UHGV virus genome: UHGV-0129770
Reading direction: 5' to 3' (one strand)
Length of the DNA: 45,743 bases
Source: a virus
The position numbers and the translations under genes were made by a program. How positions within the stretch are numbered: the stretch's first letter is position 1; every line of letters begins with the position of its first letter. Positions 10,300 through 41,633 of this stretch are shown here, in pieces. Below the pieces are notes generated by a model. It was not told the DNA's origin, ran no database searches, and saw only the letters and a program-made list of their open reading frames with translations.

Positions 10300-10342
10300 C
10301 ATGTCCTCCAAACATTTATCAGTGATGATATTAATGTTTTGT

Positions 10343-10370
10343 GTTAGAAAATCAATTTTGAATATCTAAC
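10343..10370. promoter_or_regulatory. operator-like inverted repeat GTTAGA-N16-TCTAAC (site B), upstream of the ref-like gene
   Basis: GTTAGA 10343..10348, TCTAAC 10365..10370; lies 50 nt upstream of ATG 10420. Confidence 0.45.
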
Positions 10371-13009: not shown

Positions 13010-13321
13010 ATGAAAAAAATAGATTTCACTTATTCTGCCGCCACACTTGAGCGGCGCTTCACCCTCATTAGAGAGTTGGAGCTGTCAAAAGTCTGGTATC
13101 AAATCCTACTGGATGAAGAGTTTTCACTGATGGTTATAGCAGAAAAATTGGCTATGCCTAATGACCGGCACAAGGTCATAGCCAGCCTCGATCTGGTGAC
13201 AAACAGATACTGGGAAACAGAGGAACTACATGAGGCGGGAGTAATTCGTGACCTGATGGAGAATTCCGTTCCCCGCCGCTATCGTGCAGGGAACGGCATC
13301 TCCGTGGTTAAAGGTGTTTAA
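13010..13321 (+). CDS. hypothetical protein
   Basis: ORF track; convergent with the 13318..13710 gene. Confidence 0.35.
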   Translation: MKKIDFTYSAATLERRFTLIRELELSKVWYQILLDEEFSLMVIAEKLAMPNDRHKVIASLDLVTNRYWETEELHEAGVIRDLMENSVPRRYRAGNGISVVKGV

Positions 13322-13710
13322 AGCTCACCTGCGCGCTGTTTTTCAAGCACAGATTTAACATTTGGCGCTTTCCCTTTAAAAGAATGGAAAGTGCCACATT
13401 TTTCTGTTTTAACCTCGCGCAGAGCTTCGCCATCGGCGTTCTGCCATTGATGGGATAATGTCATATCACCGCGAGAAGGAACATCCAGCGAGTACAGCGT
13501 GTAAGTTCCCCCCATCTCCGCATACTCCTGGAACACATAGCTCATTACGTCAGATTCAGTTTTTCGGTGTGCGTTATCAACCTTATTCCCATTCAGAAAT
13601 ATGGCATCCGGATAGATTTTTATATCAAACCGACCGCACTTAACTTGTAAATTTCCGGCGCTCGCGATCAAAGGGAAAGACGCCAGTAAAGCAATAGCCA
13701 ATCTTTTCAA
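13318..13710 (-). CDS. secreted hypothetical protein (signal peptide)
   Basis: N-terminus MKRLAIALLASFPLIASAG is a typical Sec signal. Confidence 0.5.
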   Translation of the reverse strand: MKRLAIALLASFPLIASAGNLQVKCGRFDIKIYPDAIFLNGNKVDNAHRKTESDVMSYVFQEYAEMGGTYTLYSLDVPSRGDMTLSHQWQNADGEALREVKTEKCGTFHSFKGKAPNVKSVLEKQRAGEL

Positions 13711-13730
13711 TTCTGCCTCCGCTGCGTAAC

Positions 13731-14354
13731 TTATTGCCCGTATTTTTTACACCATTGCTCTGCCATTTGTTTGGCTAAAGGCCCGGCTACTGCACTGTAT
13801 TCTGCTGTTTTACTTTGCACACATGAAGCAGATGGTTTTTTATTTCGCTGCTCGGTTAGTTTGCGCTCATAAGCCATCATGCTATCGAACCCGGCAATAT
13901 CACTTTGGCGAAGCATTCCCTTTTTAACCAAAAATTGCTGCCCCTCGGGCACCAGCGCAAGCATAAAAAGTGGTTGTAATAACTCACCTAATCCTTGCTG
14001 GCGATACACTTCGAATTGCTGCCATCCCTGACTTAATCTGGAAAGAGTATCTTTGGTTGAATAACCTGTTTTTGTTATAGCTTTGTCCGTCAGATATGCT
14101 GTATATGCAAAAACGCAAAAGTCAGTTTTACCAATAAACTGAGTTCCAACAGGCCGTAATGGAATGCCCTCTCTCTTGCAAAAGTCCATAATTGCCGCTT
14201 GTGAATGATCCCCACCAGCGTTATTCATAACCTGCTGCCCTGCCCTGAATTGTGCAGGTAACGCAGTTGCATTGGCTGTATTAACAGATACGCATCCCAA
14301 CATAGCCGCGAGCGCGGTCCCTAAAACCCTTAACTTCACTACACCGTCCTTCAT
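13731..14354 (-). CDS. secreted hypothetical protein (signal peptide)
   Basis: N-terminal hydrophobic signal LGTALAAMLGCVSVNTANA. Confidence 0.5.
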   Translation of the reverse strand: MKDGVVKLRVLGTALAAMLGCVSVNTANATALPAQFRAGQQVMNNAGGDHSQAAIMDFCKREGIPLRPVGTQFIGKTDFCVFAYTAYLTDKAITKTGYSTKDTLSRLSQGWQQFEVYRQQGLGELLQPLFMLALVPEGQQFLVKKGMLRQSDIAGFDSMMAYERKLTEQRNKKPSASCVQSKTAEYSAVAGPLAKQMAEQWCKKYGQ

Positions 14355-14571
14355 GTAAACAAAATGAAGTTTTATGTTACAAAAACAATCAACTACATCA
14401 ACATGATTTAGGCCAAATTTCGGTCAAAAAATAAAATCCACAAAAAGTGGTTGACACTATTTTGGAAATCACAAACTGCACATAATCCATCGCGCTAACG
14501 GCTCCCGTTGAAGGTTCTTTTGACGATTAACTTTCAGCCGAAGCGCGGTAGGGAGTCATAACGCCAAAGCA

Positions 14572-14595
14572 GGCCGCCATGTGCGGCCTTTTTTT
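14572..14595 (+). terminator. intrinsic terminator-like hairpin in the leader of the 14623 gene
   Basis: GGCCGC-catgt-GCGGCC followed by TTTTTTT, located 28 nt upstream of ATG 14623. Confidence 0.5.
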
Positions 14596-14622: not shown

Positions 14623-15276
14623 ATGGAAAAGATCGCAATATTCAGCCTGACCACCAGCAAGCCTCAAATGCTCACTGCAATACTGAAAGACGGTGCTCTC
14701 ATTATTAACGAAGTAAAACCCCTTCCCGCGTCAGCATTGGAGCAAAAGCAAAAAATTCCTCCAGCTATAGCAGCCCTGCGGAAAAGCAAATTTAAGGTAC
14801 TGGTAGACGAAATTACGCCAACGATCTCCGCTGGCACCGGAGCAAGCCAGGTGACTCTCAAGACCCGTCATGCCGATGGCAGAGCAGCAATCATCGTCGG
14901 GATGGAAAGATACAGAGAGTTAAAACTCCAGAAGCTATTATCCCTGCCGCAAAATAACAAAGGTGCTTTCGAAATCCCCGACTCTATCGTTGATACCGAA
15001 TACAACGGTAACGGAGAAGAAGTCTACAGGGTGAACTGGCAGGATATCAGGCCGGAGCATATTCTGATGATCCTGTGTTGCTACGCGACCGTATACCACA
15101 ACGTTGCCAGTGCAGATTACGTAGAGCAGATGACCGGCACAGTCGAGAAAGAGCAAAAAACAGGCATACTCGCTTCGTTCCTGTCCATTATTGGGCATGA
15201 AAAAGTTAAAGCAGGCACCTCCCAGCCAAAGTCACTGGCTGGGAAAGAAGTTGATGAAGATACCGTGATACTTTGA
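14623..15276 (+). CDS. hypothetical protein
   Basis: ORF track frame; start moved to ATG 14623 (GGAGGAAGG SD) because the listed GTG 14581 start lies inside the terminator hairpin. Confidence 0.5.
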   Translation: MEKIAIFSLTTSKPQMLTAILKDGALIINEVKPLPASALEQKQKIPPAIAALRKSKFKVLVDEITPTISAGTGASQVTLKTRHADGRAAIIVGMERYRELKLQKLLSLPQNNKGAFEIPDSIVDTEYNGNGEEVYRVNWQDIRPEHILMILCCYATVYHNVASADYVEQMTGTVEKEQKTGILASFLSIIGHEKVKAGTSQPKSLAGKEVDEDTVIL

Positions 15277-15411
15277 TCACATTAGTAGCTTTGTTAACTC
15301 CCTCAATACCAGGTAGAAGAGTAACAAAAATATTGACGCGAGTATTTGAGTGGTCAATGAAGCGTTCATAAACAGATCAATTAGCATTAATAATTCGAAG
15401 ATAACATCCAT
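15277..15411 (-). CDS. small hydrophobic protein (44 aa), unlisted ORF; toxin-like
   Basis: Own translation: MDVIFELLMLIDLFMNASLTTQILASIFLLLFYLVLRELTKLLM; GGAG about 8 nt upstream; convergent with 14623..15276. Confidence 0.3.
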   Translation of the reverse strand: MDVIFELLMLIDLFMNASLTTQILASIFLLLFYLVLRELTKLLM

Positions 15412-15604
15412 GTCATTCACTCCGTTTAATTTTTAATCTAATGCCAGCAAATGAAGCTGGCCCCCGCATAAAGATTAATGAAAGTCACTTGTCACCAGTG
15501 AGGGGATTTATGAACCACATCCCCCTGAACTGGTGGCCTGTCTGTTTCTCGCATTTCACACCCTGCATACAGTTTTCCCCAGGTTATGACTGAGGGGCTT
15601 TGTT

Positions 15605-15934
15605 ATGGGCTATAGCAGACTCGACGATAGGTACATTGAAGACGATATTTTTCGTGCGCTGTTTCACCAGGAAATGATTAAGCGGGTATCGGAGTATCAC
15701 TCTGATAATTTCCAGTACACGATAAAGATTGATGAAGTATATCGTTCAGACCTTGCAGCCTACAGGGCGTATGGCAATGCAGATTTGCGCTGGGTATTCC
15801 GGGTGCTGGTGGGCCATGAGTCAGAAATGGAAGAAATGCCCACAGGGACCACGTTAACTCTTCCTGATGTGGCATGGCTGAGGAACAAGATCCGTGATTA
15901 CGCGAGCGCGGAACCGGAGATAGAAAATGCCTGA
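15605..15934 (+). CDS. hypothetical protein, first gene of a two-gene operon
   Basis: ORF track; 8-nt overlap with the downstream gene. Confidence 0.45.
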   Translation: MGYSRLDDRYIEDDIFRALFHQEMIKRVSEYHSDNFQYTIKIDEVYRSDLAAYRAYGNADLRWVFRVLVGHESEMEEMPTGTTLTLPDVAWLRNKIRDYASAEPEIENA

Positions 15935-17120
15935 TTTCCTGAAAAACCAGGACGGGCGCTATATCACTGACGGCCTGTCCTCTAAGGACTTCACGCGTTT
16001 ATTCGACCTTATCAGGAAAGAACAAACCCGTAAGCGCCGGCAAGCTCACCGGACGCTGACGCCAGGTAGACTGAGGAACAAATCCGCCGAAGATATTCTC
16101 AAGTTAGGGAAGAAAAAAGGCGGCACGTTCTTCACGCGAGACGACCTGAAAGGTTTCGAAAAGCTACGGAGTAAAACGCGCGAAAAATATGACAGCAAGA
16201 CGGCTGGCATCACATACGCCCAGCTGGTGGCATCCAGCCAGGCAATCGATATTAAGCGTGCAAATAACGCCGTGGATGACGGATCTGGTATCAAAAGAGC
16301 TACACCCGTATCTCTTCGCCACAATGTGATTAATATCCGCGTAGAAGCATCGGATATATCCGTCCACCAGCACCATATCGTCCGGATACGCTTTGAAGAA
16401 TGGGATCAGATGGTTGATGATATCGCAGAAGACGATAAATCAGCTCTCAAAATCACTAAATCACTGTGCGCCGGGCGAGTGTCTTTCGATTGTGACTGTG
16501 GTCGTCATCAATACTGGTATCGTTACATCGCCACTGCGGGTAACTTTGCCCTGGCACCGCCAAAAGAATACGCCTATCCAAAAGTTCGCAACCCGAAGCT
16601 GCAAGGCGTCGCCTGTAAACACGTGATCCACTCAATGACGCGGTTACAGTCCGCCAGTTGGCAAATGAGTATTGCTCGTGCGCTACAAAAGGCTGCAACG
16701 CAAATTGCATTTGGTGACGATCGCCGCCGTACAACCAAACACTTCTCAAAAGAAGACGAGAAGGAGTTTAATCGCAATCGTAGCAGTAAAACGAACGTTG
16801 ACGCTGCCAAGCGAGAATGGAGGCTCTATCAGAAGCGCCAGGCCGCTTTAAGCACAAAACTGGCAAAGGACAACGGCAAGATTGACAAGCTACGTGACCA
16901 ACTGACCAAGGCCAGAAAGTTGTCAGACGCACAGAAAAAACGGGCGGCAGCAAAAGAAGCGGCGTTGCAACGTGAGAAACAGAAAAACAAGGAGCTTCAG
17001 CAACGCCTGGCCGATCAGTTCGCACTGAAGAAGCAGGCGTTCATTGATGCGCTTGTCATGGCTGGAACACCACCAGCACAAGCTGAAAAAATGTTCATGG
17101 AGTATGTAAAAAAAGCATAA
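15927..17120 (+). CDS. SWIM-type zinc-finger protein with basic N-terminus and Lys/Ala-rich coiled-coil C-terminus
   Basis: CxCx(n)CxH pattern FDCDCGRH...GVACKHVIH; stop lies inside the convergent terminator stem. Confidence 0.5.
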   Translation: MPDFLKNQDGRYITDGLSSKDFTRLFDLIRKEQTRKRRQAHRTLTPGRLRNKSAEDILKLGKKKGGTFFTRDDLKGFEKLRSKTREKYDSKTAGITYAQLVASSQAIDIKRANNAVDDGSGIKRATPVSLRHNVINIRVEASDISVHQHHIVRIRFEEWDQMVDDIAEDDKSALKITKSLCAGRVSFDCDCGRHQYWYRYIATAGNFALAPPKEYAYPKVRNPKLQGVACKHVIHSMTRLQSASWQMSIARALQKAATQIAFGDDRRRTTKHFSKEDEKEFNRNRSSKTNVDAAKREWRLYQKRQAALSTKLAKDNGKIDKLRDQLTKARKLSDAQKKRAAAKEAALQREKQKNKELQQRLADQFALKKQAFIDALVMAGTPPAQAEKMFMEYVKKA

Positions 17121-17153: not shown

Positions 17154-17882
17154 TCATTTTTTTGAAAGATCAATTCCAGTATTATCAAACAAACTGGAAA
17201 TATCAGACACCAATTTATTAAAATGCTTGTCATCATTATAGAATGATGTGCTTTTTATAGCGACTATAAAATCACATAAATCTTGCGGAGATTCAATGCT
17301 AACCCCCTTATTTTTATATAGTTCAATAATACTGCCAACATCAGTATGCAATAGTTTTATCGCGCCACAAATTTCTCGCTGTTTCGTAACCAAGTCATTA
17401 AGTTTATTTTCATTTTCATCTAAGATTTGTTTTGAATATTTAGCGTCATTGGTTGCTTGATTTAACTTTGTTTTCTTTCTTTGCAATTCTATTCTTTTAT
17501 CATAATCAGCAACTTCATCTAAATATCTTATTTCAGTGTATAATTTACTTGTTAGCTTAGATATCTTCAGTGTGAGAACAGGAGCTAACACAGATGCAAA
17601 TACTCCATAAACAAATGGGATTACAACGTGATAAACCCACGGGGATACAATCCAATTATCAATGAACGGGACATTACCACCAACAGAAACAATAGATAAT
17701 GTATATAGGATGTCGTCCTTTGACTTTAATATAATTAAAATATCCTTCCAGTTAAAAATTAGAAATGAAATGACAACATATGCAAAAACCTTGTTAAATA
17801 TTTTATCTTTTATTATTTCAGAAAATGATTTTAGTTCTGTTTCATTTATAGACGGATTATCTTTAACTTTTTCTGACATCAT
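17154..17882 (-). CDS. AT-rich membrane protein with two TM helices and a coiled-coil tail; candidate abortive-infection or exclusion effector
   Basis: ORF track; markedly AT-rich by eye compared with flanks; TM segments VFAYVVISFLIFNW and VYHVVIPFVYGVFASVLAPVLTL; no recognisable family. Confidence 0.5.
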   Translation of the reverse strand: MMSEKVKDNPSINETELKSFSEIIKDKIFNKVFAYVVISFLIFNWKDILIILKSKDDILYTLSIVSVGGNVPFIDNWIVSPWVYHVVIPFVYGVFASVLAPVLTLKISKLTSKLYTEIRYLDEVADYDKRIELQRKKTKLNQATNDAKYSKQILDENENKLNDLVTKQREICGAIKLLHTDVGSIIELYKNKGVSIESPQDLCDFIVAIKSTSFYNDDKHFNKLVSDISSLFDNTGIDLSKK

Positions 17883-17903
17883 AGCTTATCCTGATTACTT
17901 TTA

Positions 17904-18104
17904 TTATGGATAGTTAAAAGATTCAACAGGTGATGGTGGTTGAATTGGGTAATGTTTCTTCTCGTACTCCTCAATGAGAAGACTCATAACCTCAAAGAAA
18001 TCACCTTCCGGAGTATTCATTTCCGGTTCGTTATCGAACATCGGTTCGACCGCACGCAGTGCGGCCTCATAATCTTGTTCTGTACGGATAGGTTTAATGT
18101 TCAT
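17904..18104 (-). pseudogene. truncated HigA-family antitoxin (N-terminal domain only, no HTH)
   Basis: IRTEQDYEAALRAVEPMF...PEGDFFEVMSLLIEEYEKKHYPI matches the N-terminal domain of HigA-type antitoxins as I recall them; ORF stops where the HTH should begin; no cognate toxin. Confidence 0.45.
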
Positions 18105-18117
18105 TAATTACAAAGGA

Positions 18118-18142
18118 AAGCCCACTTGCTAAGTGGGCTTTT
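18118..18142. terminator. bidirectional intrinsic terminator downstream of higA
   Basis: AAAGCCCACTT-gct-AAGTGGGCTTT flanked by an A-run and a T-run. Confidence 0.5.
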
Positions 18143-18160
18143 TGTATGTGTTTTACTATA

Positions 18161-18499
18161 TCAGGCTGCTTTTTTATTCAGGTTCCGCTGAGAAATAAAT
18201 TTTTCAGCAGTATTGATACGACTTAACTCTTCCTGAACGCGCATATCATTTTCGACTTCCCACAGATCTACTGCGGTCTGAAGATTAATCCAAAAATCTA
18301 CAGAAGTATCGAATGCTTTTGCCAGGCGATATGCCATATCCATCGTTAGCTTACGATTGTTATTAACAAGAGCACTTACGGTGTTACGATGAACATGAAG
18401 TATTTCTGCTAACTCGTTGATCTTCAGCTCTAACGGCTCCAGGTATTCGTACAGCAGGATATCACCTACGGTCGTCGGTTTTCTGGTTGCCTGTTTCAT
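18161..18499 (-). CDS. higA: HigA-type antitoxin (XRE-family HTH)
   Basis: GDILLYEYLEPLELKINELAEILHVHRNTVSALVNNNRKLTMDMAYRLAKAFDTSVDFWINLQ is the classic HigA/VapI HTH pattern; sits downstream of the toxin gene. Confidence 0.75.
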   Translation of the reverse strand: MKQATRKPTTVGDILLYEYLEPLELKINELAEILHVHRNTVSALVNNNRKLTMDMAYRLAKAFDTSVDFWINLQTAVDLWEVENDMRVQEELSRINTAEKFISQRNLNKKAA

Positions 18500-18569
18500 T
18501 TTTTGCCCTTACTAGCGTGCGTATTAAGTGGACTCTGGTCAGAACCCGGTCCGTAACCGGGTATCTGTT

Positions 18570-18872
18570 TTAGTATTTGTGAGGGTCGAGATACAAGTCC
18601 TCGGCCTTTCCGTTAACCCACTTAAAAATTAACCTATATTGCTTATTCACCCTTACTGATGAATAGCCATTTAGCTTCCCTGACAGTTCCTCATACCGAT
18701 TACCTGGTGGTGATCTTAAATCCTTACAGGTAGTTGCGGCATTGATAATGTCCAACTTCCGTGACAATCTCATATGAATATCAGGAGGTATCTTTCTATG
18801 TGGTGTTGAAAATTCAAAAAAATCATCAAGCCACGCATCCCTGAAATCCTTTATGTTAATTTTTTTGGTCAT
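18570..18872 (-). CDS. higB: HigB-type toxin (RelE/ParE superfamily killer protein)
   Basis: C-terminal half ...YRLIFKWVNGKAEDLYLDPHKY fits the HigB family; toxin-first operon order. Confidence 0.7.
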   Translation of the reverse strand: MTKKINIKDFRDAWLDDFFEFSTPHRKIPPDIHMRLSRKLDIINAATTCKDLRSPPGNRYEELSGKLNGYSSVRVNKQYRLIFKWVNGKAEDLYLDPHKY

Positions 18873-19022
18873 TAGTCATTTGATCCTCCGTGATGATTAC
18901 CGAATGCCATAACTATAGCGCACCGTTGCACTGTGCGCAAGTGCATTTTATGAATTCCCCCTCCTTCATCCAAAATCACAATCTCCAGAAAATCTTCCTT
19001 TCGATACCTGACAGATCGACCT

Positions 19023-19826
19023 TTGAGGATGCTTATGGGCCGTTTTGACGAATGGTTTGCTGACGATGCAAACCTGGCAAGTAAGGAGTCAGAACATGAC
19101 AGCACGCAGAGAGAAACGCCAGCGCCGATTGAAGCGAATGCAGGAGGCGCGCCGGAACATGGCAATACCGGTTCGGATTCATTCAGCATTCTGGAAGAGC
19201 AACCCGCCGCCCAAGCTGATAGCCATGATAATTTTGCTGATAGCAACGGTGGCCTTACTCCGGATGCTGGCGAATCAGATATAGCCATACTTCCATCTTC
19301 CCTGGCTGGCAGAGAACCGACTCCACAGTTAAAAGCACGCTATAACGGGCATAAAGCCTTTAACGACCAAATCCGCGCAGACTGGATGCTGATTATTGAA
19401 TCCAGCCCAGACGCGTTTCAGGCTCTCTTATATCGACCAGATGTTGGCACATATGGGGTAGTCAGCGACGAAACAGGAGAAGAGTCATTCACTGAACTGG
19501 ATAACAACCAACGCGAACTGACTTACCAGGAACCTGAAATCGTTTATGTGCTGGATAACCCTGACGGGCGTGACTCTTTCCATGCGATTGACGCAGACGG
19601 TGAGCAGGATGGCTTAACCGATGATGTTCTGATTCTGCGTATTGCAGCAAATAACGTCCCCGTCGGCTCAATTCTTGAATGGAATGAAGAGATGGTAAAC
19701 GGCGTAGCGCGCCGCTGGTGGTACGTGCACCGTATTTTTAGCTACGGCACACAGCATGTTGGTTCGCTTTACTACTGCATACCTGCCAGGAATTTTGATA
19801 CGACTCAAAACGGAGTGATCGAATGA
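19023..19826 (+). CDS. hypothetical acidic protein (start uncertain)
   Basis: ORF track; a 62-aa TM-containing ORF in another frame (ATG 19097, AAGGAGT SD) overlaps the low-complexity N-terminus, so the true start may be downstream. Confidence 0.35.
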   Translation: MRMLMGRFDEWFADDANLASKESEHDSTQRETPAPIEANAGGAPEHGNTGSDSFSILEEQPAAQADSHDNFADSNGGLTPDAGESDIAILPSSLAGREPTPQLKARYNGHKAFNDQIRADWMLIIESSPDAFQALLYRPDVGTYGVVSDETGEESFTELDNNQRELTYQEPEIVYVLDNPDGRDSFHAIDADGEQDGLTDDVLILRIAANNVPVGSILEWNEEMVNGVARRWWYVHRIFSYGTQHVGSLYYCIPARNFDTTQNGVIE

Positions 19827-23189: not shown

Positions 23190-25461
23190 CCTTAGATATG
23201 GTTCAGTTTGCAGTGGAATTGAAGCAGCGAGCATTGCCTGGGAACCGTTGGGTATGCGTCCGGCGTGGTTTGCTGAAATCGAGCCTTTTCCATCTGCCGT
23301 TCTTGCGCACCGCTGGCCCCATGTCGCCAACCTTGGCGATATGACAAAACTTGCCAAAAAAGTCCTGGCTGGGGAAATCGAATCCCCTGATGTGCTCGTC
23401 GGGGGAACACCTTGTCAGGCATTCAGTATCGCTGGATTACGTGGTGGGCTTGATGATGAGCGTGGCGCGCTAACTTTAAAGTATGTGGAGCTTGCAAATG
23501 CAATTGACGACAAACGGGCTGAGTCATTTCTCAAACCAGCCGTTATCGTCTGGGAAAATGTCCCAGGAGTCTTGTCATCGGCAGATAACGCCTTCGGATG
23601 TTTCCTTGCCGGATTGGCTGGAGAAGATGCGCCATTCGAACCAGGTGCTCGACCTGAATCACGAAAAAGTAACGCGTTCTGGCGGTGGGATGTCAAAACC
23701 AGTTGCCATGCTCCAAAGTGGCCGCAGTGTGGTTGTATTTATGGACCGCAGCGAAAAGTGGCCTGGAGAATCCTTGATGCCCAATACTTCGGAGTGGCAC
23801 AACGACGCCGACGCGTGTTTGTTGTCGCAAGTGCTCGAACAGACCTCGATCCCGCAACGATACTTTTTGAGTTCGAAGGCGTGCGCCGGAATATTGCGCC
23901 GAGCCGAAAAAAGAAGGAAATCGCTTCCGCCATTATTGCAAATGGCGCTGCAATCAGTGGCGAAAGCCTAAATCCATGCCTACACGCTGACATGCCCCCC
24001 GGTATGAAATCGACGAAAGCCGTAAACGCTTTCAGGATGGCGGCATTTGGGGAATATATTGACGATGAAACCGCATCGACAGTAAAGGCAAGAGACTTTA
24101 AAGATGCCACTGACCTTGCCGTTTTTAGCAGCACAGGAGCAGGTTTTTGGTCAGAGGGGCATGGTACATTGCGGGCGCGTGAGCAAGAAAGCCATGAGCA
24201 TCTTGTTACATTAGCTTTTCCTGAGCGTATGAGCGGTACACAACATGCTGCAACTAAGAATACTTCACCATCTCTAATGGCTCAAAATCCAACAGCCGTT
24301 TGCTATGAAGTAAGAAACGCAGAAGTAGCTGTCCGCCGTCTTACCCCTGTCGAATGTGAAAGGCTGCAAGGTTTTCCTGATGGGCATACGTTGATCCCTA
24401 CGGAAAAGCGTAAAACAATTTCCTCAGATGAACTGGCATACCTTCGCAATCACTATCCAGATTTAAGCGAAGAAGAAGCCGCGATGCTCGCTGCTGACGG
24501 GCCGCGTTACAAAGCGATTGGCAACAGCATGGCAGTTCCTGTTATGCAATGGATTGGGTGTCGCATTCTTGCGACTGTGGAAGCTAAACAGCCAAAAACA
24601 ATAAATACCATTACCTACACAAGAAAACTCCGGACTCCGGATGAATATGAACGTCCGATCTTCAAATGGGTAGGCGGTAAATTCTCAGAGTTGCCTACAG
24701 TGCTTGAGCATCTACCACACGGCAAGCGGTTAATAGAACCGTTCGTTGGTGGCGGTTCTGTATTTACGAATGCAGGATTTCGCCACAACCTGCTTAATGA
24801 TATTAACGGTGACCTGATTAACTTCTATCAGACATTGCAGCGAGAAGGACATTCGCTCGTCACGCTGTCATATAGTTTTTTCCAAAATTACAACAACGCT
24901 GACGCTTACCTCGAAGTGCGTGAGGCATTTAACAGAGGAAAGTATGACCAGCTACATCATGCTGCCGCCTTTTTGTACCTTAATCGGCACTGTTTTAATG
25001 GCGTAACGCGGTACAACCAAAATGGCGAGTTCAACGTGGGGTATGGCAAATACAAAGCGCCCTACTTCCCACATGCAGAGATGGAGGCATTTTTGGCTGA
25101 TGACGTACTCAAAAACACGTCCTTTGTATCAGGTGACTTTGCTGGCGTCATCGAGGCGGCTGGTGAAGGCGATGTGATTTTTTGCGATCCGCCGTATGAA
25201 CCGCTGCCGGATACAGAAGGGTTTACCAGTTATTCAGGAAATAGCTTCCGTTTCGACGAACAGAAACGGCTGGTATCTCTATTGGTGGAAGCCCACCAGC
25301 GCGGCGCTAAGGTAGTGATTACAAATAGTGGTGCGCCAAACATCCGTGAACTATATGAAGGAAACGGGTTTAAAGTACATCATATGGCAGCCAGACGGTC
25401 GGTTTCCTGCAAGGCGTCAACACGTGTAGTTGCTAACGATATAATTGCAATAATGAAGTAA
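23167..25461 (+). CDS. bifunctional DNA methyltransferase (N-terminal C5-cytosine domain, C-terminal Dam-like N6-adenine domain)
   Basis: C5 motifs [27 protein letters not shown]; Dam-like [21 protein letters not shown]; no adjacent restriction endonuclease. Confidence 0.8.
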
Positions 25462-32462: not shown

Positions 32463-32897
32463 TCATTGTCGCCATGCATTTTTTAACTCAGGAATATCTG
32501 CCATTTCAATTAACTTGCGAAGTCCAGCACTGACTTTCCCATTGCCAACCATAGCAAGCCAATCTCTTACAGCTTTCGGCATGTAGAGCGTTGCAGTTAC
32601 CGGCTCTTCAACCCTGGCAGGACATCCGCATACAGGCCATTTAATTGATTCCATAACTTCGGATGCCGGGGTGAGGGCGGGGACATTGAGTATATCTCTA
32701 CCAGAAAACTGGATAACGATCCGTTCAGCGAGCGAGAGTATCTCACTTTCGGCAAGAATTGATGCCAACTGCGCCTCAACAAGAAAGCGACTTGTTGTGT
32801 TCAGAGAGTGGCTCTTAGCGCCATTTTTATACGAAACAAAGATTCGATACGCCATAACTCTAATGATTTGTGTTAGAAAACTAAAATTAAACCACAT
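32463..32897 (-). CDS. hypothetical protein (start uncertain: ATG 32897 or 32855)
   Basis: ORF track; a GTTAGA half-site at 32872..32877 lies inside or just upstream of the 5' end depending on the start. Confidence 0.35.
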   Translation of the reverse strand: MWFNFSFLTQIIRVMAYRIFVSYKNGAKSHSLNTTSRFLVEAQLASILAESEILSLAERIVIQFSGRDILNVPALTPASEVMESIKWPVCGCPARVEEPVTATLYMPKAVRDWLAMVGNGKVSAGLRKLIEMADIPELKNAWRQ

Positions 32898-33013
32898 AAC
32901 AACATGTGTGTTAATAGATTTTATTTTACTAAACCTATTGACTAAATCACAAAGTAGGTATTGTTAGCCCGTCAAAAGAACCTTCACGCCGCGCCCGAAT
33001 TTAGGGCTTAACC

Positions 33014-41530: not shown

Positions 41531-41633
41531 AATCGCTTCTCGACCGGCAAAGATCTTCATTCAATCCCCATCGCAAATCACACACTCCCTATCCTCTGGA
41601 AAATGAACAGATACCTGCTTTTCGGAGGAATAA

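Follow-up and report, generated by a model that had tools for sequence, protein, structure and literature searches.

orf77 of D6-like phage-plasmids: a conserved 44-codon gene with a predicted membrane product and a predicted P1-type late promoter

Introduction

In the RefSeq record of phage P1, every late promoter is annotated with a "-22 region" of 9 nt that is separated by 4 nt from a 6-nt -10 element, and the consensus derived from eight annotated P1 late promoters is AAGTGACTT-N4-TAnAAT. The late promoter of gene 26 in P1, LP26, diverges from LPpmgL, the late promoter of a small gene. Here we describe a similar, predicted, divergent arrangement in a relative of P1, where the small gene is orf77, a minus-strand gene of 44 codons located between homologues of mat and gene 26. 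The DNA analysed is a stretch of 45,743 nucleotides from the viral genome UHGV-0129770, hereafter called the window, with positions counted from its first letter. The region shares about 99% identity with D6, an Escherichia P1-like phage-plasmid, and with about 119 PLSDB plasmids from E. coli, Salmonella and Shigella. Among 5,426 complete E. coli genomes the locus is present in 98, and it is plasmid-borne in every case.

Several types of small protein invite comparison with the product of orf77. Small late membrane proteins of phage lysis systems, namely holins and antiholins such as P1 LydA/LydC/LydD/LydE, have in common with orf77 small size, dispensability, one hydrophobic helix beside an amphipathic one and, for orf77 by prediction, late expression; in the P1 record, LydD and LydE are small proteins annotated as putative holin and antiholin and located downstream of lyz, which has the late promoter LPlyz. 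The type I toxins of Enterobacteria (Hok, Ldr, TisB, Ibs, ShoB, Zor and DinQ) resemble orf77 in size, hydrophobicity and plasmid location. Morons are described, in the abstract of PMC3594210, as independent transcription units within phage operons. The existence of the gene is already on record, since orf77 is annotated as a hypothetical protein in the GenBank and RefSeq entries of D6 (YP_009914754 / ASR76398), and the protein family phrog_38362 represents the same gene; these records carry no function, promoter or structure. What is new in the present analysis is the evidence for selection, the predicted fold, the link to a late promoter, and the architecture of the locus.

Results

Coding evidence and family of orf77

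Translation of the minus strand from 15411 to 15277 gives MDVIFELLMLIDLFMNASLTTQILASIFLLLFYLVLRELTKLLM, which is exactly the peptide proposed by a first-pass annotation made from the letters of the sequence. The Shine-Dalgarno (SD) sequence that it had considered plausible is a GGAG 8 nt from the ATG (Table 1). Its description of the open reading frame (ORF) as unannotated is right for the ORF track on which it was based and for most plasmid records, among about 100 complete plasmids carrying the gene, where the annotation pipeline PGAP omits it, but does not hold for the D6 records and phrog_38362.

The size of the ORF is not decisive. The surrounding 6 kb contains 76 ORFs of at least 25 aa, so that a length of 44 codons is by itself not beyond chance, and the question is decided by comparative data. 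The abundance of ORFs of this size would suit an ORF that makes no protein, as would the usual absence of a PGAP call and a probability of about 0.12–0.15, which is not very improbable, that the frame would stay open under random substitution. The last 60 nt of the ORF are furthermore near-identical between two otherwise divergent alleles, for which a function at the DNA or RNA level, or recent recombination, is possible. For the comparison, L007 and L008 (pSa1423 plasmids) were left out as indel-ridden assemblies. In all good-quality relatives the ORF is intact and exactly 44 codons long, namely in the window, D6, the related loci that we label L009–L012, L016–L018 and L026, and the allele-B plasmids L003, L004, L005 and L020; the conservation in related elements that had been proposed as a check is thereby found.

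The gene exists as two old alleles, A (MDVIFELLMLIDLFMNASLTTQ...) and B (MNIFNKLIDLLNKFISASLTQQ...), that have the C-terminal sequence FLLLFYLVLRELTKLLM in common. Between the alleles, synonymous sites in codons 2–27 are saturated (proportion of synonymous differences, pS, about 0.84; nonsynonymous, pN, about 0.4), and yet the exact length of 44 codons is kept, as are the start codon and the SD spacing, with GGA(G) at 8–9 nt from the ATG in both alleles except in L009 and L010. Within each allele pN/pS is 0.04–0.3; as examples, the window and L011 differ by 11 synonymous and 3 nonsynonymous changes, and L003 and L005 by 14 and 7. Variable columns at codon positions 1, 2 and 3 number 3, 4 and 15 in allele A, and 7, 2 and 12 in allele B. 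Thymine occupies 62% of the second codon positions and 18% of the third, which indicates that the hydrophobicity of the product is a coding signal and does not simply follow from a strand rich in T. The frame-specific purifying selection seen in either allele, the third-position excess and the T content of second positions as period-3 signals, and the invariant length all speak against a fortuitous ORF, and on this comparative evidence we conclude that orf77 is a genuine gene under purifying selection. Two other ORFs of the interval were rejected as genes. D6 "orf76" (27 aa, 15485..15568, minus strand), which has no family match, and a 50-aa plus-strand ORF at 15441–15593 have no intact counterparts in L012 or L011, and each of the two is interrupted by indels in these relatives; the indels in question are a deletion in the long hairpin described below (L012) and a 1-nt deletion in the same place (L011).

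The window peptide is identical to that of D6 orf77, with 98.5% identity at the DNA level, and the phrog_38362 profile matches over its full length of 44 positions with E-values of 1.2e-30 (allele A) and 2.4e-15 (allele B). No match was found in Pfam, NCBIfam or PADLOC (E ≤ 10 or 1). Searched exhaustively with an HMMER profile, 1.84 billion representatives yielded only 8 near-identical or truncated copies of the family, and a word-indexed protein search nothing beyond it. In tblastn searches D6 was the sole phage match and plasmid matches were confined to Escherichia, Salmonella and Shigella; similarity searches found no orf77 in P1 or P7. As far as these sequence searches extend, orf77 forms an orphan family that does not occur outside D6-like plasmids.

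Predicted structure of the peptide

The AlphaFold2 model based on the family alignment (predicted local distance difference test score, pLDDT, 94.5) consists of two helices, residues 2–16 and 19–43, with a kink at A17-S18. The best 19-residue Kyte-Doolittle window, residues 18–36, scores 2.07 and exceeds the value commonly required of a transmembrane segment. Amphipathic character is seen in the N-terminal helix, most strongly in allele B (hydrophobic moment 2.29). This helix is variable in sequence, and the C-terminal helix is conserved and ends in RELTKLLM. The product is accordingly modelled as a small membrane peptide, with an amphipathic N-terminal helix and a C-terminal helix that is predicted to span the membrane. 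The first-pass annotation had taken the ORF for a small hydrophobic membrane peptide, with which hydropathy, predicted helices and selection within alleles agree.

A predicted P1-type late promoter upstream of orf77

From the ATG to about 60 nt upstream, alleles A and B are only 43% identical, and the upstream region contains two conserved islands. The one nearer to the ATG is a small stem-loop (Table 1), whose stem core CCAGC/GCTGG is invariant, whereas the outer base pair changes from G-C in allele A to A-T in L020 and L005, and the loops vary in sequence and length (7 or 10 nt). Compared between alleles, the stem arms are 84% identical and the loop 37%. The stem-loop would lie near the 5' end of the orf77 mRNA, where it may act as a stabiliser.

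The second island is a block of 22 nt (15471–15492) that is 97% identical between the alleles, with flanks at 43–54%, and that on the ORF strand reads AAGTGACTT-tcat-TAATCT. Its 9-nt box agrees at 9 of 9 positions with both the P1 LPmat box and the eight-promoter consensus, and matches AAGTNACTT, the pattern of the P1-type -22 box; in P1 LPmat, a run of 13 nt, TGACAAGTGACTT, is identical to the orf77 promoter. The 4-nt gap and the TAnnnT form of the -10 element also correspond to P1, and allele A is without a good -35, as expected for this promoter type. Among relatives, the sole variable base of the promoter is the fourth position of the -10 element (TAATCT, TAACCT or TAAACT). The strict late pattern occurs once in the 86.6 kb of D6 (0.1 expected), in the right orientation and 61 nt upstream of the orf77 ATG, and the distance from block to ATG is conserved at 81 or 84 nt. 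The predicted transcription start site is at about 15465, which gives a 5' untranslated region (5'UTR) of about 54 nt. An Lpa-like activator is encoded on the same element, by D6 orf4, outside the window. From the promoter we infer that orf77 is probably a late lytic gene, the transcription of which would depend on Lpa and occur late. The possibility that the conserved block is a repressor operator was ruled out, as the block is unique in D6.

On the other side of the interval, gene 26 has a late-promoter motif of the D6 type, TTTCACA-N7-TACAGT. The general form WWTCACA-N7-TANNNT is matched 3 times in the window (0.28 expected) and 5 times across D6, and each of the five D6 matches is on the coding strand, 30–50 nt before a late gene (26, 23, pmgB, prt and ddrB); of these genes, prt and ddrB had been left out of the derivation of the motif. 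Sites of this D6-type motif are at 15554–15573, 18975–18993, 32945–32964 and 41576–41595 in the window, and at 25221 and 27727 in D6; that at 18975–18993 is a variant upstream of gene 7. The D6-type late box resembles the P1 -22 box but is placed 2 nt farther from the -10 element; the gene-26 box has a 6-nt gap, unlike that of P1. Gene 16 has a candidate late promoter with a 4-nt gap. As for LP26 and LPpmgL in P1, the late promoter of gene 26 would thus diverge from that of a small gene, but the two P1 promoters share one palindromic box, whereas at the orf77 locus a hairpin lies between two separate boxes, which are spaced by about 65 nt, and the 81-aa product of pmgL does not align with orf77.

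The long hairpin between the two predicted promoters

The long imperfect hairpin reported in the first-pass annotation exists, with arms at 15493–15507 and 15519–15535 and an 11-nt loop. Its folding energy is -22.8 to -26.7 kcal/mol (also about -23), with z = -2.0 to -2.3 relative to shuffled sequences. The suggestion that it forms a leader or regulatory RNA of the ORF is not supported, because the hairpin lies upstream of the predicted orf77 promoter and because allele-B relatives have retained the gene without it. It is positioned between the orf77 box, which ends at 15490, and the gene-26 late motif, and being upstream of both promoters it is expected in neither late transcript. The hairpin was also considered as a part of a late promoter and rejected, since it lies outside both motifs.

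In allele-B relatives the position of the hairpin is taken by a relE/parE-higA cassette that ends in a hairpin of its own (-20 to -23 kcal/mol), with an invariant stem, CAGCGTCACC/GGTGACGCTG, and variable loops, abutting the same CTTTCTCGCATTTCACA late-promoter sequence. L012 has a deletion of 15–22 nt here, depending on the alignment, and still forms a shorter hairpin. Elsewhere in the window, the gene-7 late motif is preceded by a canonical plus-strand terminator at 18927–18945. The replacement by another strong hairpin in the toxin-antitoxin variants, together with the terminator before gene 7, leads us to read the long hairpin as a terminator or insulator. It differs from an intrinsic terminator with a GC-rich stem and a direct U-tract in that its tail, GCCTGTCTGTTTCTCGCATTTC, is T-rich but interrupted. 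Judged from sequence, the element is most plausibly terminator-like or an insulator, not a canonical terminator, with its activity and acting strand both putative. About 120 nt around it (15453–15574) are invariant in L009 and L010, which are 87% identical, and this invariance could reflect constraint or recombination.

Table 1. Features of the orf77 locus in the window
Feature	Position	Strand	Remark
mat homologue, maturation control	14623..15276	+	convergent with orf77
orf77, 44-codon gene, helix-kink-helix membrane peptide (predicted; D6 orf77, PHROG 38362)	15277..15411	-	
Shine-Dalgarno GGAG	15420..15423	-	8 nt upstream of ATG
Conserved small stem-loop GCCAGC-loop-GCTGGC	15443..15461	-	near predicted 5' end of orf77 mRNA
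Predicted P1-type late promoter for orf77	15472..15490	-	-22 box AAGTGACTT 15490..15482, gap TCAT, -10 TAATCT 15477..15472
Long imperfect hairpin, spacer between divergent late promoters (predicted)	15493..15535		probable read-through terminator/insulator
Gene-26 late-promoter motif TTTCACA-N7-TACAGT, D6-type late box	15554..15573	+	
Gene 26 homologue, baseplate wedge	15605..15934	+	putative divergent late partner of orf77

The interval as a cassette slot

The interval between mat and gene 26 (about 15339–15544 in the window; 3140–4017 in L003; also L004, L005, L019 and L020) serves as a slot for cassette exchange. In about 19 plasmids it is occupied by a plus-strand relE/parE-higA type II toxin-antitoxin (TA) module, always together with allele B of orf77. 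In several plasmids an element of the TnpB/IS200-IS605 type is inserted in orf77 at 15321–15326, and in pDEC12A-1 the insertion sequence (IS) IS2 is found at about 15406, in codon 2; a few database copies of the gene are truncated or frameshifted. Since the plasmids with IS insertions are otherwise intact, orf77 is dispensable. Disruption of the ORF in close relatives had been named beforehand as an outcome that would speak against a gene. It does occur, in a minority of plasmids, but it shows dispensability rather than that the ORF is no gene.

One family member, L026 (GCA_041140025.1, contig JBBYYJ010000002.1, 481–487 kb), has the same order of gene 25, gene 26, orf77 and mat within a contig of 642 kb, and may be a D6-like element that is integrated in a chromosome or was joined to it by assembly. 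A scan of genome contigs with Mat found one near-identical locus only. In L026, gene 7 appears directly after gene 25, without the accessory island that the window has at this place.

Gene layout and surroundings

In the window, gene 26 is followed by gene 25 (15927–17120, plus strand), and the stop codon of orf77 abuts that of the convergent mat. The terminator scan found none between the mat stop codon and the long hairpin, so that transcription from mat would be expected to continue through orf77 in antisense. An unusually stable fold is predicted for 15205–15300, where mat ends and the orf77 3' region begins, with z = -4.5 on the plus and -3.4 on the minus strand; the fold includes a perfect 9-bp stem, TCCCAGCCA/TGGCTGGGA, at 15220–15244 inside mat, and could mark where the orf77 transcript ends. 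A strong canonical terminator, AGGCCGCcatgtGCGGCCT followed by TTTTTTT, at 14571–14589 on the plus strand, precedes the mat ATG (14623) by only about 30 nt. At this distance there is no room for a promoter between terminator and ATG, and mat expression may depend on read-through or antitermination; P1 mat instead has Omat, Pmat and LPmat.

Farther away, two minus-strand genes upstream of mat (13318–14354) have signal-peptide-like N-termini, MKRLAIALLASFPLIASA... and MKDGVVKLRVLGTALAAMLGCVSVNTANA..., and D6 is different in this segment, with a simB-like gene in its annotation. A second accessory island at 17154–19034 interrupts the P1-type tail operon, separating gene 25 from gene 7, and contains orf73, a fragment of a helix-turn-helix regulator, and higA/higB on the minus strand; orf73 (242 aa) combines N-terminal hydrophobic segments with a coiled coil and has no match in PADLOC. 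The 19-mer TAATGWTTTGTGTTAGAAA is present twice in the window, at 10332–10350 and 32861–32879 on the plus strand (0.03 expected), one copy being upstream of ref and the other between orf52 (minus strand) and gene 23 (plus strand), and it is a candidate operator for a C1-type repressor of D6-like phages.

Discussion

The data directly support the reality of the gene, the architecture of its peptide, the match and conservation of the promoter, and the position of the hairpin. We lean, with confidence somewhat above even, towards an account in which orf77 encodes a late membrane peptide, is transcribed from a P1-type late promoter, and is separate from the long hairpin. Leftward transcription would start from the promoter at 15490..15472, as one of a divergent pair with the gene-26 late promoter, and an Lpa-type activator would cause the peptide to be made late in lytic growth. 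The mRNA would begin with the conserved stem-loop in its short 5'UTR, and the product would be a small helix-kink-helix peptide of the inner membrane. Its role would be a non-essential late function directed at the envelope, for which holin- or antiholin-like modulation of lysis or membrane permeabilisation is the leading guess. Outside the orf77 transcript, the long hairpin would stop read-through, from mat in the window and from relE-higA in the variants, into the late tail genes.

Several observations weigh against this account. The position-matrix score of the promoter, 13.6 bits, ranks second among 91,450 positions but 52% of shuffled 45-kb windows contain a site that reaches it, and it is therefore not significant in itself, so that the case for the promoter is made by position, orientation and conservation together. 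The Lpa of D6 is only about 31% identical to that of P1, and the main late operons of D6 use a related box with a 6-nt rather than 4-nt gap (e.g., AAATCACAA compared with AAATGACTA in P1), which makes the action of the resident activator on a promoter with a 4-nt gap only putative. The SD sequence is degraded to AGTG in L009 and L010. As for the hairpin, it fails the strict T-run rule, the scanner finds no terminator in 15100–15750 or at the junction in L003, and one substitution in L026 and L011 keeps the pairing on the minus strand only, as G·U. Concerning lysis, orf77 does not adjoin the lysis cassette, lydA/lydB being about 40 kb distant in D6, and neither Pfam, PHROG, the exhaustive HMMER search nor tblastn revealed a resemblance to a holin or antiholin.

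A lysis role is only a guess. The gene has neither of two hallmarks of holins and antiholins, a place in a lysis cassette beside an endolysin gene or holin homology, and in this respect, as well as in sequence, it differs from the P1 Lyd-type proteins. Of the features of a small late transmembrane protein, the transmembrane helix is predicted from the peptide, and the late expression from the promoter alone. At 44 aa, the peptide is also shorter than typical holins.

The main rival to a late lytic role is that orf77 is a moron, i.e., a small membrane protein made constitutively in lysogeny, for instance in superinfection exclusion or modulation of host membrane proteins, with the P1-like box being coincidental or irrelevant. 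In orientation the gene is opposed to the lytic genes that flank it and agrees with nearby accessory genes (simB-like, orf73 and higBA), and its position in an accessory slot with cassette turnover fits a moron. In allele B, a hexamer TTGACT/TTGATT is located 19 nt upstream of the same -10 element, in a layout like that of Pmat, a predicted sigma-70 promoter of P1. A comparable -35 is not found in allele A, where the sequence is CTCACT/TTCACT, and the invariant bases coincide with the late -22 box and the -10 element and not with a -35/-10 pair. Scanning for sigma-70 promoters gave none ahead of the ORF, and no canonical terminator follows downstream. We regard the moron interpretation as unlikely, but as one that must be taken seriously.

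A type I TA system was suggested by the resemblance of the ORF to small toxins. The peptide would then be a membrane-depolarising toxin acting in the plasmid state by post-segregational killing, and the antitoxin a cis-antisense RNA running from about 15401 to the long hairpin. With its 44 residues (the limit for such toxins being below 60 aa), hydrophobicity and single transmembrane segment the peptide would qualify, and the element is a low-copy plasmid-prophage whose siblings hold a type II TA module in the same slot. A promoter-like site on the plus strand at 15365–15394 would give an RNA complementary to the start codon, SD sequence and 5'UTR and ending at the hairpin, but the site is weak, such sites are no more frequent in this region than chance predicts (2 against 1.5 expected), and allele B has neither a conserved counterpart of the site nor the long hairpin. 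Repeated IS insertion into the ORF recalls chromosomal hok loci. However, the insertion at 15321–15326 sits 3' of TTAC, the usual target of IS200/IS605, and could be explained by target preference.

Other characteristics of type I systems were also sought. Pfam, NCBIfam and PADLOC match no known toxin family, the exhaustive HMMER search found the orf77 family only, and orf77 belongs to none of the Hok/Gef, Ldr, TisB, Ibs, ShoB, Fst and other toxin families considered. A search of 14900–15900 against Rfam at permissive E-values gave matches at chance level only, such as a partial fstAT match of 16 bits (E = 8.9). No conserved structured leader that could block translation was found, as RNAalifold applied to both alleles gives only a 7-bp stem-loop away from the SD sequence, with a covariation term of +0.71. 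A long-range fold that pairs the conserved block with the SD sequence was rejected, since it appears in the single-sequence minimum free energy structure and is not conserved in allele B. The sole strongly conserved upstream element is the late-promoter motif, which has the wrong timing for post-segregational killing, and, within the literature collection searched, no paper connects type I TA systems to P1-like phage-plasmids. The differences from Hok, Ldr and the other toxins are thus that orf77 is without family match, identified antitoxin RNA and long structured leader and has a late-type promoter. Of the hallmarks of a type I system, only the small size and the hydrophobicity were found; we consider this reading, which the first-pass annotation had raised, highly improbable.

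A more speculative idea, to which we assign a slightly smaller chance still, is that the locus works as a trap. The Lpa of a heterologous P1-type phage, or the resident late programme, would then trigger a membrane toxin, as a form of abortive infection or exclusion or as a device that times lysis; alternatively, the late transcript of orf77, extending in antisense into the convergent mat, would shut off that gene late in infection. The idea derives from the presence of an exact P1-consensus promoter in a phage that has a divergent Lpa and differently spaced main late boxes, and the two ancient N-terminal alleles could then represent diversifying adaptation. The least credible alternative is that no protein is made and that the conserved DNA consists only of the mat 3' region or terminator and promoter elements, which the frame-specific selection described above makes very hard to sustain.

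Small phage proteins are under-annotated, and with the evidence for selection, the predicted fold and the link to a late promoter a hypothetical entry becomes a testable gene. It belongs to a clinically common family of phage-plasmids found in E. coli, Salmonella and Shigella. By-products of the analysis are the definition of late-promoter motifs of D6-like phages and the recognition of the slot between mat and gene 26, with its RelE/HigA modules and IS elements. If the peptide does modulate lysis or exclusion, it would be a small added component of P1-like lytic control; otherwise orf77 would be an ordinary orphan accessory gene.

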